From: Limisphaerales bacterium
GTDB lineage: Bacteria > Verrucomicrobiota > Verrucomicrobiia > Limisphaerales > UBA11358
Length of the DNA stretch: 64,000 bases
Assembly (NCBI GenBank): GCA_003161635.1
Contig: PMOA01000155.1
Span: forward strand, 23,768 to 87,767
Reading direction: 5' to 3'
In this document: positions 3,164-53,607 of the stretch, one piece after another
Layout of the letters: each line of letters opens with the position of its first letter
How positions within the stretch are numbered: position 1 is the first letter of the stretch
The notes under the pieces: model-generated
The model's database searches: none
The model's input: only the letters and a program-made list of their open reading frames with translations
Told to the model about the DNA's origin: nothing
Position numbers and translations under genes: made by a program

Positions 3164-3504
3164 CTAGTCGCAAAGTTGAAAGTTGGCGACCCAAATCTCA
3201 AAACGATTGCAGGCGTTTCAATCACACCATCCAGCGAAAAGTCAACGGCAGGAGAGAAATGTGTCAAAGAGTGTTCTTACGGTTCAAGCAAGGGTTCCAA
3301 AACCGACTCCGCTTCAGATTTTTCGATAAACGCCAATCCTTTGTTCCCGATGCCCAATAGCCGATTCCTCGCCCAGCGCTGTCACTGGTGAACGTAAACG
3401 GATCGGTTATTATGATTGGCTGGTTTGGTCGAGACGTCCAACTTCGCCGAGGCTTCCGCCTTCGCCAGCGCTATGGTGCCCGCACTTCATATGGCAACGC
3501 CGTT

Positions 3505-5811: not shown

Positions 5812-5931
5812 GGGCGATTGAACTGTGGCACGCGCGCCGATTTACCCGCGCCGAAGTCCGTCAACAGTATGGCGAATTGCGAGGCCTTGACCAGCCCCAC
5901 CTTTGCCCGGCGGCGACAAAGTTTCGCTGAT

Positions 5932-5954
5932 GGTTGAGAGTTGAAGGTTGAGTG
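5932..5954. repeat. Heptamer array GTTGAGA GTTGAAG GTTGAGT
   Basis: Read directly; lies in the queG-rnr intergenic region. Confidence 0.7.
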
Positions 5955-6032
5955 AATAATCCGTGAAATCCGCGTCAGTAATTCCGGACCTTTGCACCTT
6001 TGCGCTGAAACCGGTTGAAGGTGGAATTTGTT

Positions 6033-6066
6033 AACAAAACTTTGTCCCACGTGGGACAAAGTTTTG
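6033..6066. terminator. Perfect 34-bp palindrome downstream of queG (hairpin/terminator or operator)
   Basis: acaaaactttgtccca-cg-tgggacaaagttttgt with a CACGTG core. No clear T-tract follows it. Confidence 0.4.
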
Positions 6067-6084
6067 TCAGGGTGGATTAACCTT

Positions 6085-9223: not shown

Positions 9224-9291
9224 TGTAGCGGCGCTCTATGAGCGTCGCCGTTGAATCGGGATTTTGCGACGGTCACAGACCGCCGCTACAG
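9224..9291. repeat. Family B palindromic element (tGTAGCGGCGCTCT ... AGACCGCCGCTACAg)
   Basis: The outer 14-nt arms are complementary with 1 mismatch. There is an inner cgtcgc/gcgacg stem. Confidence 0.85.
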
Positions 9292-12452: not shown

Positions 12453-12617
12453 ACGGGTGGATTTAGGATGGTGGTACAGTTTGGGTGGGGCGAGGCTACT
12501 GACGAGCCGGCTCGCGAGGACTCTCGCCCCACCGAAATTGCAAACTTACCACTACCGGATTTATCGCTGGCTTGACAGGACGGCTGCCGTTGATTCAGCC
12601 TTGGCCGGAACGGCAAC

Positions 12618-14855: not shown

Positions 14856-16796
14856 TTATTCACGAATTGAAATCGGCGGCAGGTATTCACCGATTAATTC
14901 GCGCTTCCACCAGGCGCCCGCCTGCGGGGACGAAGCTCCGACCTGTGTGTTGGAGCGAAGGCCCGCGGCGCGGCGTTCGGCGAGGTTGGTGAAACGATAA
15001 TCGTAAAATTCTGCCCGAATATAGCGCGGTGGATGACCGGGAAACGGATTTTTTTCCAGCAAGGCCAGGACTTCCGGCGAGCCCTGCAACAGCCGCTCGC
15101 AAAAATTCACGAACCAGGGGTTCTGCTGGGAATTGCCAAGGGCAGCAAACCACATCTGCCAGTCCAGCCGCGGTTGGTGGGGTGCAACAAATGCCGGCCG
15201 CCAGTTCACGTCACCGGGCTTGTATTTGAATTCGTAGGCCAGCCAGTTGGTTCCGTCGCTGCTGCCTTCCACCACGATCTCACGCCGTTCGGTCGTCATT
15301 ACGGCAAACAAACCGTAACTATTGAACGTCCGCAGCGGCCCAAGCCAGGCATCCACGACCGCTACCGGCAGAAACCAAACCGGTCGTGCGCCAAACAGGA
15401 GGGCCGTTTGAAAGAAGTAAATGAGCATCACCACGATGGCGAGCGGAACGATGACAGTGCGAGACCAACGGCGCGCCGGGTTGTGGGTTGAGGGTTGAGA
15501 GTTGAGGGTAAAGGCGTGACGCAGCCTGGCTGGTGCGAGTTTCGCCAGCGCAGAGTCGTCGAGCAGCAACAGGCAGAGCGCCAGCGTCAGCCAGTTGAAA
15601 AAAGTGTAATTGCCGGTCAACAGGATCAGGATTTGAAAAATGGCGATGGCCGCGCCGCCGCAAAACCTCAGCCGGCGCGGCGCAAAAATCAGCAACGATG
15701 CGCCGAGTTCGACGGCGAACATCACCAGGCAGGAGGCTTTTTGAAACCATCCCGGCAACTGGTCCGCATACCAGCCAATCCAAGTGGGCAGTGGCTGGGT
15801 CTGGTAGTGAAATGTGAGGGCCATGAGGTTGCGCCAGTTTGGATCACCGCTGAACAGCTTCACGCAACCGGACGAAAACATGAGCTTGAACAACAATAAT
15901 CGCAGCAGCCAGAGCACGACGCGCGAGGGTGGAGTTTCGCGCGCTGGCCGTGGCCACCATTGCATCGGCGCCAGGAAAATGGCGAGGAAACCGGCTTCGA
16001 GCAGCAGATTGTCCCATTGAAAACCGAGAAAATCACGGCCAACGGTCACCAGCGAAAGATAAAACAGCCAGAGCAGGGCCAGGCAGGGCGCGGGCGCAAG
16101 ATTGAAAATCAGCAGCAAGGCCAGCACTGAACCCGCCGCGCATTGGAAGTGCAAAAAGCCGTCGGACGCATTGAACCAGCACAACGTCGGCAGCAGGTAA
16201 TAGCGGTCCAGGCCGATTCCCTGCCGGTCGCATTGTTGTCCGGCTCCGGACATGAACTGGTCGGCCGGCAAAATGCCGTTGTGCCCGATGAGGCCGCTGA
16301 TTTGCGTCCACAACGAAACGAACGCGATGAGGTAAATCACGCCCAGGGTGCGCAGAAAAATCCGGCGCGTGAGAAAATGCGCCGGCGGCTCGATGTGTCG
16401 TCCCCAGAACCAGCGCGTCAGCCGGGAGAACAAGGTTCGATTTTCAGCGACCAGGCGGTAGGCCCATTCAGCGAGGTTCGCCAACATCGGCGATTTTTCG
16501 TAACCGCGCAGTGGCCATTGCCGGTTGGGATTGTGCGCCCACGTGCGGAAAACGGCCTCCGCACCGGAATAAACCAGGCCGTCGGTTTCGATGAGCACGA
16601 CGGCCGTGTCAAATTGCCGGCTGGGAATTTCGCGAAATTGCGCGGCGATGTGCGGGTCCTGGGCGGGCAGATAGTCCACGCTGTCGCCGGTCATTTGCTG
16701 CCAGCGGCGGATCCACAACGTGCAGAAATTGCAGTCGCCGTCAAAAACCAGCAACGGCTTGGCCGGCGGTGTGGCGACGCGGATGCCGCTTTGCAT
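14856..16796 (-). CDS. Fusion protein: N-terminal DCC thiol-disulfide oxidoreductase domain + lipase maturation factor (LMF1)-like polytopic membrane domain
   Basis: The N-terminus FDGDCNFCTLWIRRW is a DCC motif. It is followed by many TM helices and an LMF-like C-terminal region (LDWQMWFAAL). An in-frame heptamer array at 15486..15509 encodes TLNSQPST. Confidence 0.7.
   Translation of the reverse strand: MQSGIRVATPPAKPLLVFDGDCNFCTLWIRRWQQMTGDSVDYLPAQDPHIAAQFREIPSRQFDTAVVLIETDGLVYSGAEAVFRTWAHNPNRQWPLRGYEKSPMLANLAEWAYRLVAENRTLFSRLTRWFWGRHIEPPAHFLTRRIFLRTLGVIYLIAFVSLWTQISGLIGHNGILPADQFMSGAGQQCDRQGIGLDRYYLLPTLCWFNASDGFLHFQCAAGSVLALLLIFNLAPAPCLALLWLFYLSLVTVGRDFLGFQWDNLLLEAGFLAIFLAPMQWWPRPARETPPSRVVLWLLRLLLFKLMFSSGCVKLFSGDPNWRNLMALTFHYQTQPLPTWIGWYADQLPGWFQKASCLVMFAVELGASLLIFAPRRLRFCGGAAIAIFQILILLTGNYTFFNWLTLALCLLLLDDSALAKLAPARLRHAFTLNSQPSTHNPARRWSRTVIVPLAIVVMLIYFFQTALLFGARPVWFLPVAVVDAWLGPLRTFNSYGLFAVMTTERREIVVEGSSDGTNWLAYEFKYKPGDVNWRPAFVAPHQPRLDWQMWFAALGNSQQNPWFVNFCERLLQGSPEVLALLEKNPFPGHPPRYIRAEFYDYRFTNLAERRAAGLRSNTQVGASSPQAGAWWKRELIGEYLPPISIRE
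15486..15509. repeat. Heptamer array (GTTGAGG GTTGAGA GTTGAGG) in frame inside the DCC-LMF gene
   Basis: Read directly; encodes TLNSQPST on the minus strand. Confidence 0.75.
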
Positions 16797-19042: not shown

Positions 19043-19144
19043 AAACAAGCCGAGAGTCGAGCCGTCTTCGCTCCGCTTCGCCGCGCCAAGAGGTCGAAAG
19101 ACGAGGGCAGGGGAGAGGGGCGCATCTTGACACTGTCCTTAACT

Positions 19145-19241
19145 GGGGACTGGAAAGTCCCCAGAACCCGCAGGCTGGAAAGCCTGCGCTACGTAGCGCG
19201 GACATTCCTGTCCGCGGGTTCGGGCGACTTTCCAGTCGCCC
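19145..19241. repeat. Family A: four-hairpin near-palindromic element in the lepA-lepB spacer
   Basis: ggggac-tggaaa-gtcccc, gcaggc-tggaaa-gcctgc, ctacGTAGcgcggaca-ttcc-tgtccgcg, gggcgac-tttcca-gtcgccc. Flanked by the inverted pair cttgacactgtcctt / aagaacagtgtcgag. Confidence 0.85.
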
Positions 19242-19323
19242 GGTGCTCCCGGCCCAGACTTCCCGACCAAGAACAGTGTCGAGATGCACCCAGGGGATCG
19301 GCCTGCGGCCCAATTTGTTTTGA

Positions 19324-19353
19324 CTCTCAACTCTCAACTCTCAACCATCAACT
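19324..19353. repeat. Heptamer array (CTCTCAA)x3 + CCATCAACT, abutting the lepB start codon
   Basis: Read directly; it is the reverse complement of the TTGAGAG unit. Confidence 0.75.
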
Positions 19354-26767: not shown

Positions 26768-28768
26768 CTCCCCTGCCCTCGCTCGTTGAAGCTTTGCCCG
26801 GGCACGTTCACCCTGCCCCGGCGCGCCACGCTGCAACTCGACGCCTCGCTTTCGTCCGACGTCGCGTGCGTGATCGCCAAGCGGCTGCAATCTGAATTGG
26901 AACGCCGGCCTCCGGCATGGCGCGAAGATCACGTTGGAGTTCAAGCCTTAGCTTGTTCGGGCGGCACGCTAAAGCGTGAACTCCAACGCGGCGGGTCGGA
27001 GACCGGCGCTCCGCCCGCAACCATCCGAGTCGTTCACAGCAAATCCGCCCCGACACATGCCGAGGGCTACAAGCTAACCATTGACCGCAACGGCGTGCGA
27101 ATCGAGTTTCGTGAAACTCCCGGTTTGCATGCCGCCGTTGCCACATTGCGACAATTGCTGCGCCAATACGGCCGGCATTTGCCGTGCCTGAAAATCCGCG
27201 ACTGGCCGGATTTTGCGCGTCGCGGCGTGATGTTGGACATCTCGCGCGGTCGCGTGCCCAAACTCAAAACACTGCTTGAACTGGTCGAGCACCTTGCCGA
27301 TTTCAAAATCAACGAATTTCAACTCTATACCGAACACACGTTTGCCTATCGCCGTTACCAATCCGTCTGGCAAAGCTGGGGTGCGCTGACCGGCGAGGAA
27401 ATTCGCAAGCTCGACGCGCGCTGCCAGCAACTGGGCATTGACCTCGTGCCCAACCAGAATTCCTTCGGCCATCTGGGACATATTCTGGAACATCCCCAGC
27501 TCAAAAAACTGGCCGAGGTCTCCGGGCCTTATCCCGACGCCAGTGGAGAATTTGTCCGCCAGCCTTCCACGCTGGCGCCGAATCATCCGGGCACCCTGCC
27601 CTTCCTGCGCGGACTTTACGACGAATTGCTGCCGAATTTCCCAAGCCGGTTTTTCAACGTTGGTTGCGACGAGACATTCGATCTCGGCCATGGTCGGAGC
27701 AAAAAACTTTGCGCCGTTAAAGGCCAGGGCCGCGTTTATCTCGATTTCCTCAAGCAGATTCATCGAGAGGTTTCCGCACGCGGCAAACGGATGATGTTCT
27801 GGGGCGACATCATCTTGAGATATCCGAAACTCATCAAAGAATTGGCCAAGCTCGGTAGGGATGCGCTGCCGCGCGTCCAGGCTGACCGGCAGGTCAGCCC
27901 TACCATTATCGCGCTCAACTGGGGTTATGAAGCGAATCATCCATTTGACCGGGAGGCCGCGTTGTTCGCCAAGGCAAAAATCCCGTTTTACGTCTGCCCC
28001 GGCACTTCAACGTGGCAGACGTTGATTGGCCGGCATGACAACGCGCTGGCTAATTTGCGCTCTGCCGCCCAAGCCGGGCGCAGGCACGGCGCGATGGGTT
28101 ATCTCATCACCGATTGGGGCGACGGCGGTCATCCGCAGCCGCTCGCCGTCAGTTATCTCCCCTATCTTGCCGGCGCGTCGCTGAGTTGGTGCGCCAAAAC
28201 CTTTGATGAGGCGAAGCTTATCCCGGTTTTGAACCGCGATGTTTTCAACGATTCGACCGGCAACGCGGCCAAAGCGGCGTTTGCGCTCGGCCGGGCACAT
28301 CGGAAGTTGAAATTCGCCGTTCCCAACGAAACGCCGCTGGGAACCGCCATCACCGTCCCACCGCCGGAACAGCACGAATTGTTTTGTCGGAACGGATTGA
28401 AACATCACGCATGGATTTCCGGCAAAAACATTCGCGCCACTTTGAAGGAAATAGAAAAGCAGCGTGCTGTGCTTCATCGGGCAAAACCTTCAAGCAAAAC
28501 TGGAAATGTTTTGTTGCATGAATTGGATCTGGCCGCGCGCATGGCCGCGCAGTCATGCCAGTTCATGCTTTGGCAGCAGGCGCGCGCGGCGGGAGAAAAC
28601 TCAAAGGCAAGGCATTTGGCGCGAACTGGCATCCGCGAATTGCGAAAACTGGAGAAGGATTTCAACGCCTACTGGTCTTTGCGCAACAAGGCCACGCCCA
28701 AACATTGCTCGGGGTTTCTTCGTTGGCGGATCCAAGATTATCGCAAATCACTCAATTTTTCTTTGTAG
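26738..28768 (+). CDS. GH20-like glycoside hydrolase (beta-hexosaminidase family), start uncertain
   Basis: IRDWPDFARRGVMLDISRG and FNVGCDETFDLG blocks resemble the GH20 catalytic domain. The TTG start lies inside a heptamer array. An in-frame palindromic repeat is present at 26932..26989. Confidence 0.6.
   Translation: MNSEHRTLNLLPCPRSLKLCPGTFTLPRRATLQLDASLSSDVACVIAKRLQSELERRPPAWREDHVGVQALACSGGTLKRELQRGGSETGAPPATIRVVHSKSAPTHAEGYKLTIDRNGVRIEFRETPGLHAAVATLRQLLRQYGRHLPCLKIRDWPDFARRGVMLDISRGRVPKLKTLLELVEHLADFKINEFQLYTEHTFAYRRYQSVWQSWGALTGEEIRKLDARCQQLGIDLVPNQNSFGHLGHILEHPQLKKLAEVSGPYPDASGEFVRQPSTLAPNHPGTLPFLRGLYDELLPNFPSRFFNVGCDETFDLGHGRSKKLCAVKGQGRVYLDFLKQIHREVSARGKRMMFWGDIILRYPKLIKELAKLGRDALPRVQADRQVSPTIIALNWGYEANHPFDREAALFAKAKIPFYVCPGTSTWQTLIGRHDNALANLRSAAQAGRRHGAMGYLITDWGDGGHPQPLAVSYLPYLAGASLSWCAKTFDEAKLIPVLNRDVFNDSTGNAAKAAFALGRAHRKLKFAVPNETPLGTAITVPPPEQHELFCRNGLKHHAWISGKNIRATLKEIEKQRAVLHRAKPSSKTGNVLLHELDLAARMAAQSCQFMLWQQARAAGENSKARHLARTGIRELRKLEKDFNAYWSLRNKATPKHCSGFLRWRIQDYRKSLNFSL
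26932..26989. repeat. Palindromic repeat translated in frame inside the GH20-like gene
   Basis: cgttggagttcaagccttagc-ttgttcgggcggcac-gctaaagcgtgaactccaacg encodes ..VGVQALACSGGTLKRELQR... A related unit (cagcctgaaggctggacaccaaac) lies at ~8045-8070. Confidence 0.7.
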
Positions 28769-28830: not shown

Positions 28831-29859
28831 TTATTTGCTTTTCACATCCCACGCATCGCGCAGGCCGTCGCCGAGAAAGTTCAGCGCCAGCAACGTCGTG
28901 ACGAGCACGCCACCGGGAAATGCAATCAACCACCAGTAAATCCGGATGGGATTGATTTGCGAAACGCCTTCCGCGATGAGCGTGCCCCAGCTCGCCATCG
29001 GCGGCTGCACACCCAAACCCAGGTAGCTCAGGAACGATTCGTAAAGCACGATCGCCGGCACGGTGAGCGCCAGATAGGTAATCACGACGCCAAAAACGTT
29101 CGGGATGATGTGCCGCGCCAAAATCCGCACCGGTCCGCCGCCCATCGCGCGGCTCGCTTCCACGAACGCACGCGTTCGCAAAGATAAAACCTGTCCGCGC
29201 ACGATTCGCGCCATCGTCAACCACGACACCGCGCCGAGGCCAACGAACAGCAACACGACGCGAAGTTGTCTGGTGAGCGCGGGTGAATTTTCGACAAAGT
29301 GCGATTGCTTGAGCAATTCGCCCAGCGTGGTCAGCAAAACAATCACGAAAATAATCGTGGGCAGTGAATAAAGAACATCCACGACGCGCATCAACGCGCT
29401 GTCCACGCGCCCGCCCACGTAACCGGCAATCGCGCCCCACAGCACGCCGATGACGAGGCTCACGCCCGCGCCGACAATGCCGACGAGCAGTGAAATTTGC
29501 GCGCCGAACAAAATGCGGGAAAAAACATCACGCCCATGCACGTCTGTGCCGAACCAGTGTTGCGCGCCCGGCGGCGCAAATGCTGCGTCGGAAAGCTGGT
29601 TGGGATCGTGAATTTGGGCAAATGTCCCGCCGGAAACTTTCAGGACGATGGGCCACGCGACGAGTGCCAGCAGCAGGAAAACCAGGTACCACGCGCTGAC
29701 AACTGCGGCACGATTTCGCCGGAAGCGCTGCCACGCGCGCTGGCCGGGACTGGAGTGCTGTCGAGGGTCGAGGGTCGAGGGTAGAGCGCCAGAAGGCGGT
29801 CGTCCGGGCGTCAGGTTGCCCTCGACTCTCGTCTCTCGTCTTTCGACCGGTTCACTCAT
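28831..29859 (-). CDS. Peptide/nickel ABC transporter permease (OppC/DppC-like)
   Basis: BPD-transporter permease with 6 TM. ATGAGTGA overlaps the upstream permease stop. The N-terminal tail is encoded by the repeat at 29761..29848. Confidence 0.8.
   Translation of the reverse strand: MSEPVERRETRVEGNLTPGRPPSGALPSTLDPRQHSSPGQRAWQRFRRNRAAVVSAWYLVFLLLALVAWPIVLKVSGGTFAQIHDPNQLSDAAFAPPGAQHWFGTDVHGRDVFSRILFGAQISLLVGIVGAGVSLVIGVLWGAIAGYVGGRVDSALMRVVDVLYSLPTIIFVIVLLTTLGELLKQSHFVENSPALTRQLRVVLLFVGLGAVSWLTMARIVRGQVLSLRTRAFVEASRAMGGGPVRILARHIIPNVFGVVITYLALTVPAIVLYESFLSYLGLGVQPPMASWGTLIAEGVSQINPIRIYWWLIAFPGGVLVTTLLALNFLGDGLRDAWDVKSK
29761..29848. repeat. Cargo-less heptamer-arm hairpin element inside the 5' end of oppC-like gene
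   Basis: (TCGAGGG)x3 at 29761..29781, a ~36-nt spacer, then gccctcgactctcgtctctcgtctttcgacc. It shares the identical 18-mer ctcgactctcgtctctcg with the queG copy. Confidence 0.8.
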
Positions 29860-30766
29860 ATTTCACGCGCGGGTCAAGCAGGGTGTAGGCGAAATCCACC
29901 ACCAAGTTCAGACCGATGAGCAATATTGCGTAGAGCAAGGAAAGGCCGACGATGAGGGGATAATCAAGATTCAACGAGCTGTTGACGAGAAAGACGCCAA
30001 TGCCGGGAATCTGGAAGATGTTTTCAATGACGAACGAACCGGTCAGCAGGTCGGCCAGCATCGGGCCGGAATAGGAAACGACCGGCAGCACGGCGATGCG
30101 GAAGGCGTGCCTGAGCAACAGCCGATTTTCGCCCAATCCTTTGGCGCGGGCCGCGGTGACGAACTCGGATTGCATGGCGTTTAACATTCCCTCGCGCATC
30201 AACCGGGCGACCTTGCCGGCAAAAAACAGGCCAAGGGCGATGGGCGGCAAAATCATATGCCACGGAGTTTCCCACAACCCAACCGGCAGCAATTTCCATT
30301 TGATCGAGAACAGCAGGATCAACAACGGTGCAATAACGAAGCCCGGCACGCAGACAACGAGCATGGAAAAAAAACTGCCGGCATAGTCCTCCCAGCGTCC
30401 GCGCCGGGCTGCGGTAAAAAACCCGACGGGCAACCCGACCCCCATCGCAAAGCCAAACGCCAGCGCGCCGAGCAGCATCGAGACCGGCAACCCTTGGGCG
30501 ATGATGTCGTTGACCGTATGGTTGCGATATTTGAGTGAGACACCGAAGTCGCCATGCGCCAGATCGCCTAGGTAGCGGAAATATTGTTTCCAAACCGGTT
30601 CATCGAGATGATATTTCGCTTTAATGGCACGTTCGATTTCCGGGGAAGCCGGCGCGCGTTCCCGGTCAAACGGTCCACCGGGAGCGAGATGCACCAAGGC
30701 GAACGCCAGCGCGCTGATGACAAGCAGCAGCGGCACGGCGAAGATAAGGCGCTTCAGAAAATACAT
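29852..30766 (-). CDS. Peptide/nickel ABC transporter permease (OppB/DppB-like)
   Basis: MYFLKRLIFAVPLLLVIS..F.LVHLAPGGPF is a canonical OppB N-terminus; 304 aa. Confidence 0.85.
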   Translation of the reverse strand: MYFLKRLIFAVPLLLVISALAFALVHLAPGGPFDRERAPASPEIERAIKAKYHLDEPVWKQYFRYLGDLAHGDFGVSLKYRNHTVNDIIAQGLPVSMLLGALAFGFAMGVGLPVGFFTAARRGRWEDYAGSFFSMLVVCVPGFVIAPLLILLFSIKWKLLPVGLWETPWHMILPPIALGLFFAGKVARLMREGMLNAMQSEFVTAARAKGLGENRLLLRHAFRIAVLPVVSYSGPMLADLLTGSFVIENIFQIPGIGVFLVNSSLNLDYPLIVGLSLLYAILLIGLNLVVDFAYTLLDPRVKYE

Positions 30767-30769
30767 GAT

Positions 30770-31201
30770 TCAGTCGAGAGTCGAGGGTCGAGGGTCGAGA
30801 GCCGGAGGCTTCGTGCGACGGAATGGAGTTTTTGAAGTTGGGACGGAAAGAGAACAATTTAAAGAAACGGTGCGTTTTGCGAGCCTTTCCAGTTCGTCAA
30901 AAAGCGGATCGAGATCGCTTTCCTTGACATAGCCTTCGTCAAGCACGAGGTAAAAAATGGATGCGACTTCCATGAGCGAACCGTAAGATTGTTCAAGAAA
31001 GTGCGCAAAGTCCTTGTCTGAATTTCGGCCGGAACCTTCCGCAATGTTGGACGAAACGGAAATGGAAGCGCGGCGGATTTGCGACGTCATGGCAAATAAT
31101 TCCTCCCTGAGGAATTTGCGGGTGAGCCGGTAAATAACTTGATTGATTTTTCTGGCTTCCTGCCAGACCTCCAGTTTTTCAAAACGGAATCGTGTTTTCA
31201 T
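30770..31201 (-). CDS. Four-helix-bundle protein (TIGR02436 / PF05635, '23S rRNA intervening sequence protein', Avd-like)
   Basis: ORF 30770..31360; the likely start is MKTRFRFEKLEVWQ at 31201. Signature FEKLEVWQEA...SQIRRASISVSSNIAEGSGR...FLEQSYGSLMEV. The C-terminal PPALDPRPSTLD is encoded by a heptamer arm. Confidence 0.8.
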   Translation of the reverse strand: MKTRFRFEKLEVWQEARKINQVIYRLTRKFLREELFAMTSQIRRASISVSSNIAEGSGRNSDKDFAHFLEQSYGSLMEVASIFYLVLDEGYVKESDLDPLFDELERLAKRTVSLNCSLSVPTSKTPFRRTKPPALDPRPSTLD

Positions 31202-31270
31202 TCTCCCATTCCTTTCATTGTTTGTTTGCGTTATCAAGCTCTCGACCCTCGACTCTGGACCCTCGACCCG
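30774..31270. mobile_element. IVS-like insertion: inverted heptamer-array arms (TCGAGRG x4 / CYCTSGA x4) enclosing the four-helix-bundle gene, between oppA-like and oppB-like genes
   Basis: The left arm 30774..30801 is tcgagagtcgagggtcgagggtcgagag. The reverse complement of the right arm (~31239..31269) is gggtcgagggtccagagtcgagggtcgagag, so the ~28-nt arms are near-complementary. The loop is ~437 nt and carries the cargo gene. Mobility is an inference. Confidence 0.45.
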
Positions 31271-32888
31271 TTTTGCGGATGGCTTGCAACGGATGGTTGT
31301 CCAAGACGTTTGGGTAAATGCCTTGAATCCTGTTGGTATCGTAATAGTTGATGCCGACATAGAAGTAAACCGGCACGATGGGAACTTCGTCTCGCACCAG
31401 AATCGTTTCCGCCCGCTGAAAAAGCTTTTCGCGCGCCTTCAAATCGGGCTCCTGGTTTGCCCGCTGGACGAGATCGTCGTATTGCGCGTTTTTCCAGCCG
31501 GTGCGGTTGTTGCCGTCATTGCTGGTAAACAGGCCCAGAAACGTGTTCGCGTCGTTGTAGTCGGCCACCCAGCCCGAGCGCGAGAGGTCGTAATCAAGTT
31601 GCGACTGCGCATTCAAATAAGCCGCCCATTCCATCTGCCTCAAGTCCATCTGGATGCCCAACTGATCGCGCCACATTTGCTGCAATTCGACGGCGATCTT
31701 TTCATGAATTTTTGAACCGCCACCCGCCGAGGCATTGAACATATATTGAAAGCGGGGAAAGCCCTGGCCGCCGGGATAACCGGCGTGGGCCAGTAATTTT
31801 CGCGCCCGCGCCGGGTCGTAACCCAATCCTTCCGGCGATGTGTAATTGGCCGTGCCGGCGGGAACGAGATGCGAAGCGGGTTGCTCACCGCCCTGGGTGA
31901 TTTTTTTTACGATGCGTTCCTTGTCCACAGCCAGCGCCAGTGCCTGGCGCACCCGCGGGTCGTCAAACGGTTTGCGCGTGACGTTGAATCGGAAAAAGTA
32001 AGTGTCGAGACAAATGAACGTGTGAAAGTCCGGACGCTTGAGCAGCACGTCCAGCAACCCGGCAGGAATCAAGGCCGCATCCCAAACGATGTCCGCCTCG
32101 CCTCGCTCATAAAGACTCAACGCCGCATTGGCCGAACCGACCGGCAGGATGTCAATGAGGTCCGACTGCGTGTTGGCGGCGTTCCAGTAACGGGGATTTT
32201 TCCGCAGGCGGATCTTGTCGTTCAACCGCCAGTAAACCAGATCGTAAGCGCCACTGACCGGCAGCGGTTTGGCCATAAGCCAGCGGTCACCGTATTTTTC
32301 AATCGTCTGGCGCGGCACCATACTGGTCACCGGTATGGCACAGATGTCGGAAAAAAACGGCGTGGGATGATTCAACTCAACGCGCACGGTCAACGGGTCA
32401 GCCGCGTGAACACCCACTTGGGTTGGATCTTTGATTTTGCCGTCAGTGAAATCCTGCGCATTTTTCAGGAAAAAAAGCTGCCCCGCGTATTCGGAAGCGG
32501 TGGCGGGGTTGAGCGCGCGAATCCACGAATAAACCACGTCGTCTGCCGTAATGGGTTCGCCGGTGGACCAAACCAGGTTCGACCGCAAATGAAAGGTGTA
32601 AGTGCAGCCGTCGGGTGAAATTTCCCAGCGTTCTGCCAAGCCGGGGATCGCACGCCCCGTTTTCGGGTCGAACTGTGTCAATCCCTCAAACACTCCCTGC
32701 GCCACCCGCATATCGGCCTGGCCGGAAAGGATGGCCGGATCCAGCGATTGCGGCTCTGCGCCGTTGAGGATGGTGATGTCTGCCGGCGGCTCATGACGGA
32801 CACAGCCCGTAAAACAAATCAAGATCGCGACGCAAAAAGCAAAACGCGCCCGCGAAAAAATCCGCCGGGCGCGTTGGGAAATGGACAT
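31215..32888 (-). CDS. Peptide ABC transporter substrate-binding lipoprotein (family 5 SBP, OppA/DppA-like)
   Basis: ORF 31215..32924; the start at MSISQRA (32888) avoids overlap with secG. Lipobox FTGC and SBP_bac_5-like length. The C-terminal GRGSRVEGRELD is encoded by a heptamer arm. Confidence 0.8.
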   Translation of the reverse strand: MSISQRARRIFSRARFAFCVAILICFTGCVRHEPPADITILNGAEPQSLDPAILSGQADMRVAQGVFEGLTQFDPKTGRAIPGLAERWEISPDGCTYTFHLRSNLVWSTGEPITADDVVYSWIRALNPATASEYAGQLFFLKNAQDFTDGKIKDPTQVGVHAADPLTVRVELNHPTPFFSDICAIPVTSMVPRQTIEKYGDRWLMAKPLPVSGAYDLVYWRLNDKIRLRKNPRYWNAANTQSDLIDILPVGSANAALSLYERGEADIVWDAALIPAGLLDVLLKRPDFHTFICLDTYFFRFNVTRKPFDDPRVRQALALAVDKERIVKKITQGGEQPASHLVPAGTANYTSPEGLGYDPARARKLLAHAGYPGGQGFPRFQYMFNASAGGGSKIHEKIAVELQQMWRDQLGIQMDLRQMEWAAYLNAQSQLDYDLSRSGWVADYNDANTFLGLFTSNDGNNRTGWKNAQYDDLVQRANQEPDLKAREKLFQRAETILVRDEVPIVPVYFYVGINYYDTNRIQGIYPNVLDNHPLQAIRKTGRGSRVEGRELDNANKQ

Positions 32889-32892
32889 CGCG

Positions 32893-33330
32893 TTATTTCG
32901 ATTGCGTCGGCGCAGCCGGGGCATTGGTTGGCGCAGACAGGGGCAATGACAGCAAATTGTTTGTGGGCGCAGCCGCCGGTTGGGAAACGGGCGGCGTCAC
33001 CGGCTGGGGCGCGGAAATCGGCGTTTGCATTTGCTGTTTTTGTTGAACTTGTTTTTCAAATTCCAATGCGCCGCCTTGTTTATGCACCCGGTCTTGCAAA
33101 TAGCCGAGCACCAGGGCCAACCCGAAGAAAATTATGGTCGCGTATTTCGTGACCTTGGTCAGCACGTTACCCGAACCCGCGCCAAACAGCGCGTCCGCCG
33201 CCGCCCCGCCAAACGCCATGCCGGCACCGGCGTCTTTCTTTGGCAGTTGAATCAAAATCAGCAGAATCAACAATGCGCAATTGATAACCAGAAAAAATGT
33301 CAAAATTCCAACGATGAAACTCATAATCAA
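32893..33330 (-). CDS. secG: Preprotein translocase subunit SecG with a Pro/Gln-rich C-terminal extension
   Basis: Two TM helices with LIQLPKKDAGAGMAFGG..ADALFGA between them. Confidence 0.8.
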   Translation of the reverse strand: MIMSFIVGILTFFLVINCALLILLILIQLPKKDAGAGMAFGGAAADALFGAGSGNVLTKVTKYATIIFFGLALVLGYLQDRVHKQGGALEFEKQVQQKQQMQTPISAPQPVTPPVSQPAAAPTNNLLSLPLSAPTNAPAAPTQSK

Positions 33331-34098: not shown

Positions 34099-34107
34099 GT
34101 CTTAAAA

Positions 34108-34176
34108 ATCGTCCTCCTCCTCGTTCTCGTCCTCGGCATCTCGATTACGAGAACGAGGACGAAGGACGAGGAGGAT
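34108..34176. repeat. Intercistronic (pgk-tpiA) long imperfect hairpin built from GAGGAC/CGAGGA short repeats
   Basis: atcgtcctcctcctcgttctcgtcctcggcatctcgattacgagaacgaggacgaaggacgaggaggat. The inner stem ctcgttctcg/cgagaacgag is perfect (10 bp) and the outer stem is tcctcctc/gaggagga. Confidence 0.8.
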
Positions 34177-44536: not shown

Positions 44537-44646
44537 TGAAATCCGAAGTGCGAAATCCGAATCAACCCCGCACGCGCCGGCGCGCATCCGGGTTTCGTCC
44601 CGCTCTGCGGGATTTCGGGCTTCGACATTCGGATTTCGGACTTGAG
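44537..44646. repeat. Intercistronic (araB-araD) palindromic element with GAAATCC-type heptamer arms
   Basis: The left arm is gaaatccgaagtgcgaaatccgaatc and the right arm is gatttcgggcttcgacattcggatttcggacttgag. The centre holds the gcgcgccggcgcgc palindrome and the gtcccgctctgcgggat hairpin. Confidence 0.8.
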
Positions 44647-47932: not shown

Positions 47933-50900
47933 TCACGGCCAATACACCGAGCGATAAAACCGCTGCGTATAATTTGTCGCCTGTGTGTCGGTGAATTGCC
48001 ACAAGCCGTTGATGTCCGCTGTGTTTGTGCTGACCGGCGTCCAAACCACCGGCGGCATCAAATCCAGCGTCGCTTCCACCAGATAAGTGTAATCGGGAAC
48101 GCCGACAAAGCTCAGGGTCACACTGCCATTGCCGTTGACGACCGTCCCCGCAATGGAATTTGTCGGCGGTGGCCCGACGACGACGTTGATCACACTGGCG
48201 GCGGTCCCGCCCTGGCCGTCACCAACCGTGTAATTGATCTGGTCAGCCACGTCATTGGCGTTGGTGTAATAAACATAGCTGCTGTCGTAGCTCACCGTCG
48301 CCGCATTGGTGCTGCTGATGCCGCTCGTCAACGCCAGCGGGTCACCGTCCGCATCACTCCAATTCGTCGCCAGATTGCCGGCGATGATGATGTTCAACGG
48401 GTATCCCGCCGGACGCGAATAAGTGGACGGGTTGGCGACCGGCGCCGTATTGTTGTAAGTCAGCGTGGCAACAATGCTTGTCACACTGCCGGAACCGTTG
48501 CTCACGACCACGGCATAACTGCCGGCATTGGTTGCCACCGCACTGGCAATGCTGTAGTTGGTGGCCGTCGCGCCAGTGATGGGCGAGCCATCCTTGAGCC
48601 ATTGATAAGTCGGATCGGGAATGCCGGTAGCCGTCACGATGAAGTTCGCGGACTGCCCCTGACTGACGGACTGGTTGGCCGGCTGGCCGATGATGTTGGG
48701 CGCCAATGCCGGCATCCAGCCATAAAGCCAGTTCGTCACACTTTGAGCGGCCAACAAACGCGGGTCATTGTTCGTCAGCACAGTGAGGCCCAACGAAACC
48801 GGAAGCGTGCCGTCAATATTGCTGTTGGCATATTCCCACAGAACATAAGTGCTCAAAATACCCGCTGCGGGGGTCACATAGTGGTTGGTGTCAATCAAGC
48901 AGTTGATGAACGATACCAAACCGTTGGCGGTGCCGTTGGCGCCTTCCAAGGTAATGGTGGTAACCGCGGGATCCGCTTGAAGCCTGCACTTCACATACGA
49001 AAAGCCATCGGCCGTGTAAGAGCCGGCAGGGTTCAGCCAACGATACGTCGCATTACTGGTAACGTTGAAGTCTGTCCGCGCGGCGTTCATATTGAAATTG
49101 TTGGTAACATAGATATTCGGAATGGTGAAGATCAAACAGTTGGTGAAGAAGAGGTTGCCACCGCCCCAGATGTAGTCGAAATTACCCCGCACCGTGGTGT
49201 TGTAGAAATACCCCTGGGCTGAGTTGACGTTGGCCAGAATGGTGTCCTGGAGGCTGTTCACGTCACAGTTGTTCACGATGAACCGACTGGCCCCCGTGTT
49301 GATCATGATCGTTTCGGCTTGTGAGCCACCTTGCGGCGTACGGTTGACGACCGTCATATTTTCTATCGCGATGTAGCTGCCGTTCACCTTAAATGCCATG
49401 CGGCTGGCGGTGGAGCCGCCTGGGGCAATGTTCGCATTGTTGCCGTAACCGACCACGGTGCCCGTGCGGCTTTGTCCGCGAAAGGTAACATTGGTCTTGC
49501 CCGAGATGTTCACGATTTCCACGTAATTGCCGTTGCGGATGTTGATCAACGTGTAATTGATATTGTTGAGCGGGATGGAATCCACGGCCCCCTGCACGGT
49601 GACAAAGTCGCCGCTGCCATCGGCAGCCACCACCAGATTGGTCGGATTGGCCGGGCCGGCCGGCTTGGTGGTAAAGCGCCATGCATTCGTGTCGGAGATG
49701 CCGGCAAAGTACGCCCCCGCGCTGTTCTTCACGATGCCGGAATCCATCGTCACGTAGTAAGTCTGATTGGAAGTCAACACGCCCGAGTGCGGATAAATCG
49801 CCGCCGTGTTGTTCGTAATGATGACCGGGAAATAATTGAAGAGTGTGCTATCACCCTGGAACAGGCTGTGCGCCTGGACGTTGTTGGTCAGAGTAATCCC
49901 CAGACCGGCGTTGAGGGTGCTGATAATCACGGTGTTGGCACCCATGTCAATCGTATCCACCGGCGTAACGGGGTTGGTGGCGTTATAGATGCGAATCTTG
50001 CCGCTGTTGACGATTGAGATCGCCCCGTTGAAGGTGACATACAGCGGCGTGTCATAGCACACACCGGTCGCACTGTTGGCGGGAGATACAGTGGTCTGGG
50101 CCAGGGTCGTGGAATTGACCTGGAGCGTCGCATTGAAACTGAACACCGTGCCCGCCGTGTTCGTGGCCATGAGTGAGTAAACTCCATTGTCCGACCCCAG
50201 GGCACTGGCGAAAAAGAGCGTGGCATTGGTCTGGTTGGGGATGTTGACCCCGTTTTTGCGCCATTGCAGGGAAGGCGCGGGGTGGCCGTCGGCGCCCGAG
50301 ACCAAGGTCACGGCATCACCCACATTGACAGTGATATTTGTCGGTTGCGGGGTGATCGTGGGCGGCACCAGGACCGTCAGGATCGCACTATTGGTTTCCA
50401 TGCAGGCGGCGTTGCTCACGATGACAGAAACCGTGGTGGCATTCAGCGCATGCTGGATGTTGGTGAACGTCAGCGAAGAATTCGTTGCGCCGGCAACATT
50501 CACGCCATTGGTCTGCCACTGGAACGCGGGTTGAGGATTGGCCAGAATGACCGTGACGGTAAAAGTGCCACTATTGTCTTGAGTGACTATCAGGCTGTTC
50601 GGTCCGGAGAGGTCGGGGCAGTAGTTGCCAACAATCAAACCCGCAAACGAACTGGTCACGGAGTTGTAGATGTTGGTGACGACGACGGCGTAAAGGCCGG
50701 AATTAGTCAACTGGGCGTTTGCAAGCGAAAACACGGTGTTGGTCTGGTCGGCAACGGGTATCGGCATATTCGTGGCAGAACTGCCGTAAAAATACCATTG
50801 GTAGGACAGCGGCGAACTGCCAGTGGCGGCGACCGAGGAAGTCAGATTGCCACCAACGCTAACCGCATTATTTGTCGGCTGGCTGGTGATGACCACTTGG

Positions 50901-53413
50901 GGAATAACCGCCAGCTTGATCTGGCCAGCCGTGCTTTCATCAATTGATACCGATCCGTTTATAGATCCGCCGACAACAACCACCGTAGGATTAAACGAGC
51001 CGGATTTCGTTCCGGTGTAGGTAATCAACGTATTGGTTACCGGCTCCAACGCCGCGCCCAATATACTGACGGCAATCGTGCAATTGGTCTGGATGGTCAG
51101 ATTGCCCTGGACTTGCAGTAAATCACCGGCAACAGAGTTCGATTCCTCAAAGAGACTTGTTGAACCGCTTTCCAGCGTGAGGTTGGTTGCCAGAGCGAGC
51201 GTGCCGACGCTGGCACCGGGTGAAATCGTGCCACCGTTCTTGACCGTCACGGCCCCCATGATTTTGCCCGTGCCGCCCAACACGCCACCATAAACCGCCA
51301 CCCTGCCCGCGTTGAAGGTGGTCAGGTCATAAGTATTGGTGCCATTGACGAGGAGCGTGCCGTTGCTCACCACGGTGAGGCCGTTGAAATAGTTGCTGCC
51401 CGTAAGCACCAGCTTGCCGCTGCCGATCTTTGAAAGTCCGCCCAAATTGCCCATCAAACTGCCGGCGGTGGCGTTCACGATCTGAACGCCGTCGGAATTG
51501 TTGAGGTTGTTGGTCACCACGAGTGTCGTGCCGGAACTGCTAACATCAAACGTCCCGCCCAGACCGTTGAGCGTGATCGCGTGGGTGTTCGTCGTGTCTG
51601 TGCCCGTATAGCGCAGCGTGCCGGCATTCATGACCAAGGGCCCGCTGGCCAACGCGCTCAAATCACTGACTTCCACAACGCCACCATTGAAATAATTGGT
51701 GCCGGTCATGTTGTTCGCTGCCGGACTCAAGACCAGCTTGCCGCTGCCGGACTTGGTCAGTGACGAGCCGCCGTTATTGGCCAAAGTCGAACTGATGGTC
51801 AGATCCGCAGAACTGTTTTGAATCACCACCAGGTCACCGCCGCTGGCGCCGCCCGTCAACGAGCCACCCGTAATCGCCGTTGCTCCGCTGCCGGTGACCA
51901 GCAGGCCGCCGGAAGAAAGGGTCAGGGTCTTGGCGGAATTGATGGTGACGGTCGAAGCAGCAGTCAGCCGCAACGAATTGATCGTCACATCATCCGAGTT
52001 TGGCGAAGGATTGCCTACCAGGCTAACGTTATTGGCCGCCACCCATGTGGTCGGGTCGATGCCGGTTGTGTAGGCAGAGTAGGCAGCGAACGTAGTGCCC
52101 ACGAGCCAATCGGCTCCGGCCCAGGTGGCCCAGCCGCCCAAAATAGCGTTATTATTGGCGGTGGTGGTCGAGAAGGTACCGGAACCGGTCTTGCTGGCAA
52201 TGTCCAGCGTGCCGCCGACTTTGCGGGTCAACGCACCAAAGGTGGCATTTCCGCCCGAGGCGCCGGCGTTGTTGCCCGAAACGGAAGATGCCCCGGGATT
52301 GATCGTCGTGCCTGCCGTGCCGGGATTTTCCGCCGTGGGATTGATGGTGCTGTTCCCGTTGCTGAAGACCAGCGAGCCTCCGCCCAGCGTCAGCACGGCG
52401 TTGGGGAGCAAGCGGTTGGCGCTCTGGCTGCTCTTGTCAAAAATGAGCGTGCCCGCGTTCATGCTTACGATGTAACCGTCGGTGCCGGCGGTGTTCGGCC
52501 GGTTCGAAATAATCATCGTTCCCGCAGTTGCCTTGACCAAGGTCATGATGATGGCCCGATACAGGTTGGGATAGATGTAACCGCTGCGGGCATCAATGTT
52601 GGTTGGATCGAAATAGCAGTTACCGGCAGCAGTCGGTGCCATGATGATGGCGCCGTTGTTGTCCAGAACCAGTTTGGCAAAGGGCAGATATTTTCCACTG
52701 ACGTTGGCGGCAACCGTACCGCCGTTTACCACGAGTGTCGCACTGGGCAGGATTACTCCACCGGCGGCGCCACCACTGGTGAAACGAAAAGTACCCGCGG
52801 GGTTTACCTGCAAATCTCCGTTTATGTATATCCGGGCGTCGTTGCCGCCACACTGAAGAATGCCGTTGTTGATGATTGTCTGGCCGGTATAGGTGTTGTT
52901 GCCGCCCGGATTAAGAACCAGCACGCCGGCGCCTTCTTTGGTAAAACTGGTGCCGGAAACAAACGAACCAATGATGTTGGACGTGCCCGTGGCCGTGGTG
53001 ATGGTGGGATAATTGGTCAAGGTCAGCGTCCCACTTGAATTAGCCAGCGTGTAGTTGGTATTGAAGGTGATGTTTCCCACCACGATATTGGGGGAAGTGG
53101 TGGGCAAAGTCACCGTTCCGCCCGCCCCGCCTGCCCCGAAGATGGCGTTGTCACCGTTGGCATTGGTCCAGGCAATGCTGGTGGAACCATTCCACCAGTT
53201 GGCGGTATTGGTGTCCCAGTTGCCGGAGCCATCCTGCGCACCCGCAGTGACGCTATTCGTGTCCCAAGTCAAAGTGGCCGCCGGCGCCACAGGCACCAAC
53301 GCGAGTTGGACAAGCAAAGCCAGGGCGACAAGGATGAATCGCTTTGGTGTGTGCCGGCAGACCAAAGTGGAGAACCGGCCGATATTACCAAGGATAAGGG
53401 CGATTTGCTTCAT
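47933..53413 (-). CDS. Giant secreted multidomain protein: PATR (autotransporter-associated beta-strand) repeats + Ig-like domains + CE8 pectin methylesterase + Ig/cadherin-like domains + C-terminal RFYR module
   Basis: ORF 47933..53596; the likely start is MKQIALILG (53413), with a signal/TM segment. PATR-like GxGxLxL repeats are present. The Ig-like repeat SYQWYFYG / FQWQTNGVNV / LQWRKNGVNI / YQWLKDGSPI recurs. CE8 motifs are GDFVTVQGAVDS, NGNYVE, SQAETIMI, LQDTIL and GNFDYIWGGG. No autotransporter barrel was recognised. Confidence 0.8.
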   Translation of the reverse strand: MKQIALILGNIGRFSTLVCRHTPKRFILVALALLVQLALVPVAPAATLTWDTNSVTAGAQDGSGNWDTNTANWWNGSTSIAWTNANGDNAIFGAGGAGGTVTLPTTSPNIVVGNITFNTNYTLANSSGTLTLTNYPTITTATGTSNIIGSFVSGTSFTKEGAGVLVLNPGGNNTYTGQTIINNGILQCGGNDARIYINGDLQVNPAGTFRFTSGGAAGGVILPSATLVVNGGTVAANVSGKYLPFAKLVLDNNGAIIMAPTAAGNCYFDPTNIDARSGYIYPNLYRAIIMTLVKATAGTMIISNRPNTAGTDGYIVSMNAGTLIFDKSSQSANRLLPNAVLTLGGGSLVFSNGNSTINPTAENPGTAGTTINPGASSVSGNNAGASGGNATFGALTRKVGGTLDIASKTGSGTFSTTTANNNAILGGWATWAGADWLVGTTFAAYSAYTTGIDPTTWVAANNVSLVGNPSPNSDDVTINSLRLTAASTVTINSAKTLTLSSGGLLVTGSGATAITGGSLTGGASGGDLVVIQNSSADLTISSTLANNGGSSLTKSGSGKLVLSPAANNMTGTNYFNGGVVEVSDLSALASGPLVMNAGTLRYTGTDTTNTHAITLNGLGGTFDVSSSGTTLVVTNNLNNSDGVQIVNATAGSLMGNLGGLSKIGSGKLVLTGSNYFNGLTVVSNGTLLVNGTNTYDLTTFNAGRVAVYGGVLGGTGKIMGAVTVKNGGTISPGASVGTLALATNLTLESGSTSLFEESNSVAGDLLQVQGNLTIQTNCTIAVSILGAALEPVTNTLITYTGTKSGSFNPTVVVVGGSINGSVSIDESTAGQIKLAVIPQVVITSQPTNNAVSVGGNLTSSVAATGSSPLSYQWYFYGSSATNMPIPVADQTNTVFSLANAQLTNSGLYAVVVTNIYNSVTSSFAGLIVGNYCPDLSGPNSLIVTQDNSGTFTVTVILANPQPAFQWQTNGVNVAGATNSSLTFTNIQHALNATTVSVIVSNAACMETNSAILTVLVPPTITPQPTNITVNVGDAVTLVSGADGHPAPSLQWRKNGVNIPNQTNATLFFASALGSDNGVYSLMATNTAGTVFSFNATLQVNSTTLAQTTVSPANSATGVCYDTPLYVTFNGAISIVNSGKIRIYNATNPVTPVDTIDMGANTVIISTLNAGLGITLTNNVQAHSLFQGDSTLFNYFPVIITNNTAAIYPHSGVLTSNQTYYVTMDSGIVKNSAGAYFAGISDTNAWRFTTKPAGPANPTNLVVAADGSGDFVTVQGAVDSIPLNNINYTLINIRNGNYVEIVNISGKTNVTFRGQSRTGTVVGYGNNANIAPGGSTASRMAFKVNGSYIAIENMTVVNRTPQGGSQAETIMINTGASRFIVNNCDVNSLQDTILANVNSAQGYFYNTTVRGNFDYIWGGGNLFFTNCLIFTIPNIYVTNNFNMNAARTDFNVTSNATYRWLNPAGSYTADGFSYVKCRLQADPAVTTITLEGANGTANGLVSFINCLIDTNHYVTPAAGILSTYVLWEYANSNIDGTLPVSLGLTVLTNNDPRLLAAQSVTNWLYGWMPALAPNIIGQPANQSVSQGQSANFIVTATGIPDPTYQWLKDGSPITGATATNYSIASAVATNAGSYAVVVSNGSGSVTSIVATLTYNNTAPVANPSTYSRPAGYPLNIIIAGNLATNWSDADGDPLALTSGISSTNAATVSYDSSYVYYTNANDVADQINYTVGDGQGGTAASVINVVVGPPPTNSIAGTVVNGNGSVTLSFVGVPDYTYLVEATLDLMPPVVWTPVSTNTADINGLWQFTDTQATNYTQRFYRSVYWP

Positions 53414-53473
53414 ATACGTAATGTGTTTGGGAATAGTATGGGTTATTATTACGCCATAATGACCAAATTCCAT

Positions 53474-53484
53474 AATTTGCCTAG
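53474..53484 (-). promoter_or_regulatory. Shared upstream motif CTAGGCAAATT, 60 nt before the giant PME gene start
   Basis: The same 9-mer CTAGGCAAA occurs 63 nt before the PEP-CTERM gene start. Both upstream regions are AT-rich and also share aacccata and gtaataa words. Confidence 0.3.
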
Positions 53485-53607
53485 CTGCACAAATGTATGG
53501 TTTTTGGGGGGAGCGGGGAGTCTGGACGCACCCCTGACACCCGTAAAAGCGGGCTTCCAAGACTGTCAACGAGAAGCGCATCCTTGCGCCCGGCACCCAT
53601 CAAACAC

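Follow-up and report, generated by a model that had tools for sequence, protein, structure and literature searches.

A four-helix-bundle gene between inverted heptamer arrays in an opp operon of a Limisphaerales bacterium, and its likeness to 23S rRNA intervening sequences

We analyzed a 64,000-nt stretch of DNA from a Limisphaerales bacterium of the phylum Verrucomicrobiota (GenBank assembly GCA_003161635.1, contig PMOA01000155.1, positions 23,768 to 87,767 of the forward strand), which is called the window below and whose own numbering is used throughout. The subject is a 143-aa four-helix-bundle gene together with the two inverted heptamer arrays (arms) that bracket it in an opp transporter operon. 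The genes on the minus strand of the window run pgk, tpiA, secG, oppA-like, the 143-aa open reading frame (ORF), oppB-like and oppC-like. The cassette and its host genes are composed as follows.

31215-32924, minus strand: oppA-like solute-binding protein gene (SBP_bac_5), the upstream host gene (family match)
31238-31267, minus strand: 5' arm, in messenger RNA (mRNA) sense GTCGAGG-GTCCAGA-GTCGAGG-GTCGAGA plus GC, within the 3' end of the oppA-like ORF
31202-31237, minus strand: leader within the loop, consisting of the last 7 oppA-like codons and their stop (31215-31217), then a 13-nt spacer (sequence reading)
30770-31201, minus strand: 143-aa four-helix-bundle gene, PF05635/TIGR02436 (profile match, nearest structure, and ratio of nonsynonymous to synonymous change, dN/dS)
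30773-30802, minus strand: 3' arm, GC plus TCTCGAC-CCTCGAC-CCTCGAC-TCTCGAC (repeat search)
29852-30766, minus strand: oppB-like gene (OppB-type permease), the downstream host gene (family match)
28831-29859, minus strand: oppC-like gene (OppC-type permease; family match)

The original prediction had placed a bundle gene between an oppA-like and an oppB-like gene and inside inverted heptamer arrays, and the coordinates, the gene families and the complementarity of the arms all bear this out. An inverted-repeat search returned two arms of 30 nt each (30773-30802 and 31238-31267), complementary at 27 of 30 positions (90%) with 435 nt between them, and each arm is made of four tandem GTCGAGR heptamers. 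The two-heptamer pattern TCGAGRGTCGAGRG, with up to one mismatch allowed, gave 15 matches in the window vs. 0.05 expected. These matches were confined to three sites (6864-6951, 29761-29832, and 30774-31266), each of which is an inverted pair. The product of the 143-aa ORF matched PF05635 at E 8e-34 and TIGR02436 ("four helix bundle protein") at E 3e-31. When solved structures were searched with the protein sequence, the only match was 2GSC (XCC0516 from Xanthomonas, E 3e-17).

As read from the sequence, the final conserved residue of the binding protein marks the start of the 5' arm, which encodes the segment GRGSRVEGRE of that protein. The oppA-like ORF then continues for 7 codons (LDNANKQ) into the loop, where its stop lies 13 nt ahead of the bundle-gene ATG, with GGGAG within the spacer. 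At the other end, the last ten bundle codons (ALDPRPSTLD) are the 3' arm itself, and a TGA stop follows directly. The earlier statement that the arms supply the last codons of both proteins is therefore correct for the bundle protein and slightly imprecise for the solute-binding protein, whose ORF ends beyond its arm. The oppB ATG (30766) is found 3 nt past the bundle-gene stop. Since the oppA-like, bundle and oppB-like frames stand head to tail, the cassette exactly fills the junction between two cistrons. It is oriented with the operon, and the packing of the three reading frames, judged from sequence, resembles that of translationally coupled genes. A consensus scan detected no promoter-like or terminator-like sites inside the element, which is weak evidence as promoter types in this phylum may differ. 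Folding, which had been proposed as a check, placed the stem joining the two arms in the minimum-energy structure of 30755-31285 on the mRNA strand; folded by themselves, the arms reached about -56 kcal/mol on both strands, with z values of -7.6 and -8.5. Chance origin of the arm arrays is excluded by the complementarity of the arms, the pattern counts and the controls of the survey described below.

The cassette is a constant feature of this operon among the relatives sampled. The exact bundle protein was recorded in 53 blocks of the sequence collection, and all 24 of the 24 contigs that were read share the opp context. Bundle homologues of 74-99% identity are numerous and belong to Verrucomicrobiota wherever the source is named. 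The order oppA, bundle, oppB was found in all of the loci L001-L016, L018-L020, and L023; among these, L011-L016, L018-L020, and L023 have identities to the window of 71-85% for the bundle protein, 60-72% for OppA, and 69-81% for OppB. Comparison of these operons placed the bundle gene at the same position with flanking arms in every one, and the four-heptamer arms were kept even around 133-aa forms of the protein, in which a stop codon lies ahead of the arm. Within the first 115 codons, relatives compared against the window gene gave dN/dS values of 0.04-0.12, with synonymous differences near saturation (proportion of synonymous differences, pS, 0.62-0.82), and the comparison indicates that the bundle protein is under strong purifying selection. 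In a sample of eight opp-clade sequences, the arms have a mean column identity of 89%, and 92% of cells are paired. The clade-wide position and the selection argue that the bundle gene is a maintained, expressed part of the operon and no decaying insertion, and that the stem is maintained too. Being fixed in a clade in which OppA identity falls to 60-72%, and being under strong purifying selection, the opp copy is no recent insertion. The ancestor of the clade would have acquired the cassette at the oppA/oppB junction, and it would have been inherited there since. Locus L011 also carries a second PF05635 gene (15586-15945, 119 aa) at a distance of 5 kb from its opp cassette, between flotillin-like and carbonic anhydrase genes. 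It is flanked by a different heptamer, ATCGTAT/AATCGTA, which is partly mirrored upstream.

Arm-flanked genes of this kind also occur outside the opp operon, namely in most cases of the survey (below) and next to a transfer RNA (tRNA) gene. In locus L017 (site at 5798-6760) the protein is 80% identical to that of the window, and the arms, which have heptamers of the window type, are complementary at 31 of 32 positions; they include the variant heptamers GACGAGG and GCCGAGG, which are mirrored on both sides. The order at this site is tRNA-Glu(CTC), the cassette directly after it, and a weak ParE-like ORF, with no transporter nearby. The same tRNA-Glu(CTC) context was observed in L021 (2835-3807), which comes from a named Verrucomicrobiota genome and has a protein of 67% identity. 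The downstream ORF at the second site encodes 121-122 aa, and its match to the ParE toxin is below threshold (21.7 bits, cut-off 23). L017 and L021 together indicate that gene and arms occur as a single unit at two unrelated sites. An HNH endonuclease gene is also present near the second-site cassette, on the opposite strand.

To see whether the packaging is typical of the family, we used an alignment of the bundle protein and its nearer relatives to collect 80 loci from species-representative genomes, and located by profile 83 PF05635 genes with enough flanking sequence. The loci come from Verrucomicrobiota, Planctomycetota, Bacteroidota, Ignavibacteriae, Armatimonadota, and others. Each gene was scored by the best ungapped inverted repeat between 190 nt around its start and 250 nt around its stop. 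The fractions reaching two scores were as follows.

Score at least 12: PF05635 genes 79.5%, random placements of the same geometry 2.4%, neighboring genes 8.8%
Score at least 16: PF05635 genes 52%, random placements of the same geometry 0.9%, neighboring genes 4.4%

At the 53 loci with a score of at least 14, the median arm is 30 nt long; the upstream arm stops 24 nt short of the start codon, and the downstream arm starts 5 nt past the stop. Self-identity within these arms was 0.70 at lag 7 and 0.69 at lag 14 vs. 0.22-0.32 at other lags. Of 49 arm pairs, 41 had a best period of 7 and the other 8 a best period of 8, and the mode was four repeats per arm. Genes lying between co-directional neighbors were co-oriented with them in 52 of 54 cases. 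An RNA-family scan detected ribosomal RNA (rRNA) in none of the 80 loci; it found only one tRNA and two unrelated small RNA families. The heptamer sequence varies by locus, for example GGGTTGA in a metagenome-assembled genome (MAG) of Pirellula (L048), AGCTGAG in a Chthonomonas MAG (L061), TAATTGA in a member of the Prevotellaceae (L051), and GAGTATT in a member of the Bacteroidota (L082). It varies even within 6 kb of one genome: L090 holds three PF05635 genes (1430-1798, 2986-3357, and 5640-6065) with three heptamers (TGGCTTY, GTTKAGA, and AATTGAT), and L031, L037, and L051 each hold two PF05635 genes within 6 kb, each gene with its own heptamer. The inward-reading arm is purine-rich throughout (65%). 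A purine-rich 5' arm was considered as a mark of orientation and rejected, because the arm polarity of a hairpin is identical on both strands.

The survey figures indicate that packaging between heptamer arms is the usual state of this PF05635 subfamily, mostly inside ordinary gene strings. We found no prior description of heptamer-armed PF05635 genes outside rRNA in the literature, the coverage of which was incomplete and is no proof of novelty. Going by these comparisons, the window element apparently belongs to a widespread, undescribed class of heptamer-armed cassettes.

Copies of the same arms lacking a gene had been claimed for queG and oppC, and both are present as in-frame inverted arrays.

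6862-6952: cargo-less inverted GTCGAGR hairpin, in frame in a variable loop of queG, with a 34-nt loop
29759-29847: cargo-less inverted GTCGAGR hairpin, in frame within the first ~35 codons of the oppC-like gene, with a 39-nt loop

The oppC hairpin is located just after the oppB/oppC overlap, and relatives keep heptamer arrays at this place of oppC: L013 has a pair, and a single array was detected in L011. The queG and oppC hairpins fold at -35 and -36 kcal/mol on the host mRNA strand vs. -57 and -52 kcal/mol on the opposite strand; they are weaker on the mRNA strand because their mismatches are of the A.C type there. In a scan of metagenome contigs for three GTCGAGR units, 80 of at least 120 stretches were analyzed, and these hold 84 arrays. 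Among the stretches listed, 25 arrays have a partner within 150 nt and 7 have a partner at 150-900 nt, and a PF05635 ORF occurs at 5 loci, in 4 of which it is bracketed. Arrays differ in copy number and reach 119 nt in L146. Among 25 short GTCGAGR-armed hairpins, including the two of the window, the loops are 15-144 nt long and unrelated to each other, and those of the window are unrelated to the cassette as well, so the cargo-less hairpins are no copies of one element with an internal deletion. The scheme of an autonomous parent that carries the bundle gene, with the empty hairpins as its deletion derivatives, therefore lacks support in that form: the hairpins share heptamer arms only. Copies of a miniature inverted-repeat transposable element would share internal sequence from one parent, which the cargo-less hairpins do not. 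Polymorphism for presence and absence between related genomes, which is also expected of such elements, was observed at the queG segment.

The queG insert segment ranges from 41 to 112 aa among 120 QueG homologues of 70-91% identity (all but four at least 74%). Besides short forms, homologues have the GTCGAGR-type peptide or other peptides derived from repeats, and nested inserts also occur. Where the window gene has its insert, queG of L219 (2001-3080) carries, at the corresponding codon, an inverted GTGACAA-type heptamer array and queG of L220 (2001-3035) a solo AGTCC-type heptamer array. Differing arrays among relatives indicate that the queG site is a hot spot with lineage-specific heptamer arrays. 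In some QueG homologues, nested inserts of 10-50 aa lie inside the 3' arm. No target-site duplication was evident by eye at the arm borders of the opp, tRNA-Glu, and queG copies.

We consider that the element is probably a small gene cassette bracketed by a hairpin, a type known to date from the intervening sequences (IVSs) of 23S rRNA. The likeness to such an element in an mRNA context, which was the core of the original prediction, is upheld by parts and sizes that match the IVS of Coxiella (PMC4990558), by the second site and by most of the 83 surveyed genes. In the operon transcript the arms would pair whenever ribosomes are not crossing them, and would form a long duplex of the perfect type that RNase III could cut, as it does in the rRNA versions. 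Taking the rRNA elements and Correia elements (PMC2649163; PMC10969869) as models, we infer that the operon transcript folds into this stem and that RNase III acts on it there. Cleavage would split the oppA message from the permease message and would free the RNA of the bundle gene. Translation through the arms, on the other hand, would open the stem, hand ribosomes to the next gene, and thus couple the three genes. The unit could relocate whole, as suggested by the second site next to tRNA-Glu. The conserved heptamer arrays would be recognized by some factor, most likely the bundle protein itself.

Several observations weigh against this interpretation. Both arms are translated here, so ribosomes would often hold the stem open. 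A stem selected only as RNA should favor G.U over A.C mismatches, but the sense-strand arm mismatches at the 53 loci have no wobble bias (33 of the G.U type vs. 33 of the A.C type) and give no strand-specific sign of selection. This null result fits upkeep at the DNA level, by template switching or arm conversion, at least as well. Some of the two-sided arm changes span several adjacent bases (e.g., GAATG/CATT in L015), which suits copying from arm to arm. The two arms may therefore be kept alike as DNA, irrespective of any function of the stem in RNA. Six of the 30 arm pairs have changed on both sides, with a covariation score reached by 4 of 500 shuffles, in a small sample of eight sequences whose arms were picked by best pairing. 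The survey covers one PF05635 subfamily, its 80 loci being those that matched the query best, with identities of 37-88%. No enzyme of movement is present among the called genes within 10 kb and 20 further large ORFs (3505-5811 and 47933-53596 being unscanned by Pfam), in agreement with the earlier remark that the window has no reverse transcriptase or transposase. Insertion at the opp site is deduced from the second context, and an empty oppA-oppB junction was not found among the OppB homologues listed, all of at least 86% identity; all sampled relatives, down to 69% in OppB, carry the cassette. Overall the reading offered in the original prediction is partly supported: its IVS likeness stands, while the deletion-derivative scheme lacks support as stated, the wobble test is null, and the opp copy is no recent insertion.

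These same observations raise the alternative of a DNA-level palindrome without any RNA role, the arms of which are kept alike by template switching or conversion at replication and the arrays of which slip, as selfish or neutral DNA. Its translation would be tolerated because GTCGAGR contains no stop codon in any frame. The equal numbers of G.U- and A.C-type mismatches (33 vs. 33) agree with it, and so do the multi-base two-sided changes of L015 (GAATG/CATT), which are easier to obtain by arm copying than by independent point mutations, the varying copy number of the arrays (up to 119 nt in L146), and the different heptamer arrays or solo array at the queG site of relatives. We nevertheless regard it as unlikely, since it leaves unexplained why one gene family sits in the loop of most of the 83 cases across phyla, why 52 of 54 genes are co-oriented with their neighbors, and why the arms keep 89% identity amid saturated synonymous sites. 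In another explanation, the stem is a regulatory hairpin of the host, which stabilizes the mRNA between the cistrons or lets it be processed there and in this way keeps binding protein in excess of permease, and the bundle gene merely landed in its loop. A repetitive extragenic palindromic (REP) hairpin between malE and malF of E. coli sets such an excess of binding protein over permease. The location exactly at the junction of binding-protein and permease genes, with a second hairpin at the oppB/oppC junction, fits this explanation, and cargo-less hairpins are ~5 times commoner than cargo-bearing ones among the GTCGAGR arrays listed in metagenomes; Correia elements, which bind RNase III in mRNAs and are cleaved or protected (PMC2649163; PMC10969869), provide a parallel. 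It has difficulty with the occurrence of gene and arms next to a tRNA without a transporter, with their association across phyla while the arm sequence differs by locus, even within 6 kb (L090, L031, L051, and L037), and with the strong conservation of the protein, and we hold it to be quite improbable. A further idea, that the cassette is what is left of a diversity-generating retroelement whose accessory subunit Avd would be the bundle protein, starts from the fact that PF05635 is the Pfam family that matches Avd-like proteins (PMC10053308). It is close to refuted: no reverse transcriptase was detected among the genes called within 10 kb or the 20 other large ORFs, and 20000-42000 contains no direct repeat of at least 40 nt that could serve as a template/variable pair, the absence of which had been noted before. 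The PDB search matched only the rRNA-IVS-type 2GSC and not Avd, PHROGs and PADLOC gave no matches, and the operon position is the same throughout the clade. An origin as a defense or phage gene was likewise rejected for want of a PADLOC or PHROGs match.

The cassette interpretation could be taken one step further. XCC0516, the solved relative, is a homopentamer (PMC4990558), and PF05635 proteins might be ring-forming binders of tandem 7-nt repeats, with the flanking arrays of each gene as its own recognition code. This extension is speculative, and we regard it as unlikely. It is an inference drawn from the constancy of the period, the mode of four repeats per arm, the heptamers particular to each locus, and the purifying selection on the protein. 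If it were so, protein bound to one arm of its own stem, and to dispersed hairpins with the same heptamer such as those of queG and oppC, would decide whether a stem forms, and with it RNase III cutting and downstream translation in the host operons; alternatively, the bundle protein would propagate the hairpins. Paralogues with their own heptamers would define separate sets of marked transcripts, and the 23S rRNA IVSs would be the members that landed in rRNA.

Other periodic arrays and inverted repeats occur in the window. A periodic hairpin of a different heptamer family is found at 44538-44637 (GAAATCC-GAAGTGC-GAAATCC ... TTCGGGC-TTCGACA-TTCGGAT), with arms of 24 nt, a lag-7 identity of 0.76, and a 52-nt loop without a gene. 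The pgk/tpiA spacer of the same operon contains a hexamer-unit hairpin at 34103-34176 (CGTCCT/CGTTCT ... CGAGAA/CGAGGA). Degenerate heptamer arrays at 19049-19345 consist of GCCGAGAGTCGAG and GTCGAAAGACGAGG on the left and three copies of CTCTCAA on the right, and they enclose a separate 96-nt palindrome (19145-19240) of GGGGACTGGAAAGTCCCC-type sub-hairpins. Possibly another repeat entered the loop of a heptamer hairpin here. Solo arrays were observed at 2451-2495, where six tandem GAACCYT heptamers lie in the spacer after a FixO-like gene with no inverted partner nearby, and at 15478-15506, where a GGGTTGA/GAGTTGA array lies in frame in an LMF1-family gene (14856-16796, minus strand), within the linker that joins its LMF1 and LMF1_C domains. 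The inverted repeats at 9224-9290, 12477-12540, and 26932-26988 have 24-32-nt repeats, short loops, and no 7-nt period, and look like other, ordinary types of intergenic hairpin.

ORF-bearing IVSs in rRNA have been a curiosity for three decades, with the origin of the elements and the role of the protein unexplained. If they are only those members that reside in rRNA, out of a much larger class of PF05635 cassettes with heptamer arms found within ordinary operons of many phyla, their origin would become a comparative question. The PF05635 family, which has ~18,000 cluster representatives at E up to 0.001, would gain a concrete candidate for its nucleic-acid partner, namely its own flanking repeats, and many operon genes annotated as "four helix bundle protein" would turn into candidate sites of mRNA processing that are part of the operon itself. 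Palindromic repeats that have entered proteins, as in Rickettsia, would have a further example in the in-frame hairpins of queG and oppC.

Among known systems, the IVSs in 23S rRNA of Coxiella burnetii, Leptospira, and others are closest in build. The Coxiella IVS is 428 nt long; its 28-bp terminal inverted repeats form a stem, and the loop holds an S23p (PF05635) ORF. From its 5' RNase III site run three or four tandem heptamers (GACAGAT), and RNase III cuts within the stem (PMC4990558). The window cassette likewise has an inverted-repeat stem (arms of 30 nt vs. ~28 bp), tandem heptamers at the 5' end and a PF05635 ORF in the loop, within the range of a total length of ~430-500 nt, and it is embedded in and co-oriented with its host transcript. 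It differs in its host, which is a protein-coding operon and not helix 25 or 45 of 23S rRNA, and in having arms that are translated as the tails of two proteins. No Rfam family was above threshold anywhere in the window. Furthermore, the Coxiella ORF is reported to be decaying and probably untranslated, whereas the window ORF is under strong purifying selection, and RNase III cleavage has been shown for the IVS and is predicted for the window cassette. The stem, the PF05635 ORF and the tandem heptamers of an IVS are thus found together in a location other than 23S rRNA.

The remaining systems share fewer parts. Avd of the diversity-generating retroelements belongs to the same Pfam family and has the same four-helix-bundle fold (PMC10053308), but the window cassette lies without a reverse transcriptase or template/variable repeats nearby, and the structure search with its protein finds 2GSC. 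Rickettsia palindromic elements are palindromic repeats that are inserted in frame in unrelated genes and add a peptide segment (PMC10969869), as the queG and oppC hairpins do. Theirs are ~150 bp long with a conserved encoded peptide per family, whereas the inserts of the window are two heptamer arrays around a variable loop, and the queG site carries different families among relatives. The Correia elements (CREE/NEMIS) of Neisseria are short, have terminal inverted repeats, and are co-transcribed in mRNAs, where RNase III binds the paired repeats and either cuts or protects them, which alters the expression of adjacent genes (PMC2649163; PMC10969869). Correia copies share internal sequence, have no gene, and are accompanied by target duplications. 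The window hairpins, in contrast, share only their heptamer arms, built of tandem 7-nt units, with unrelated loops and no target duplication seen. Correia elements are the nearest functional model for both the cargo-less hairpins and the operon stem.

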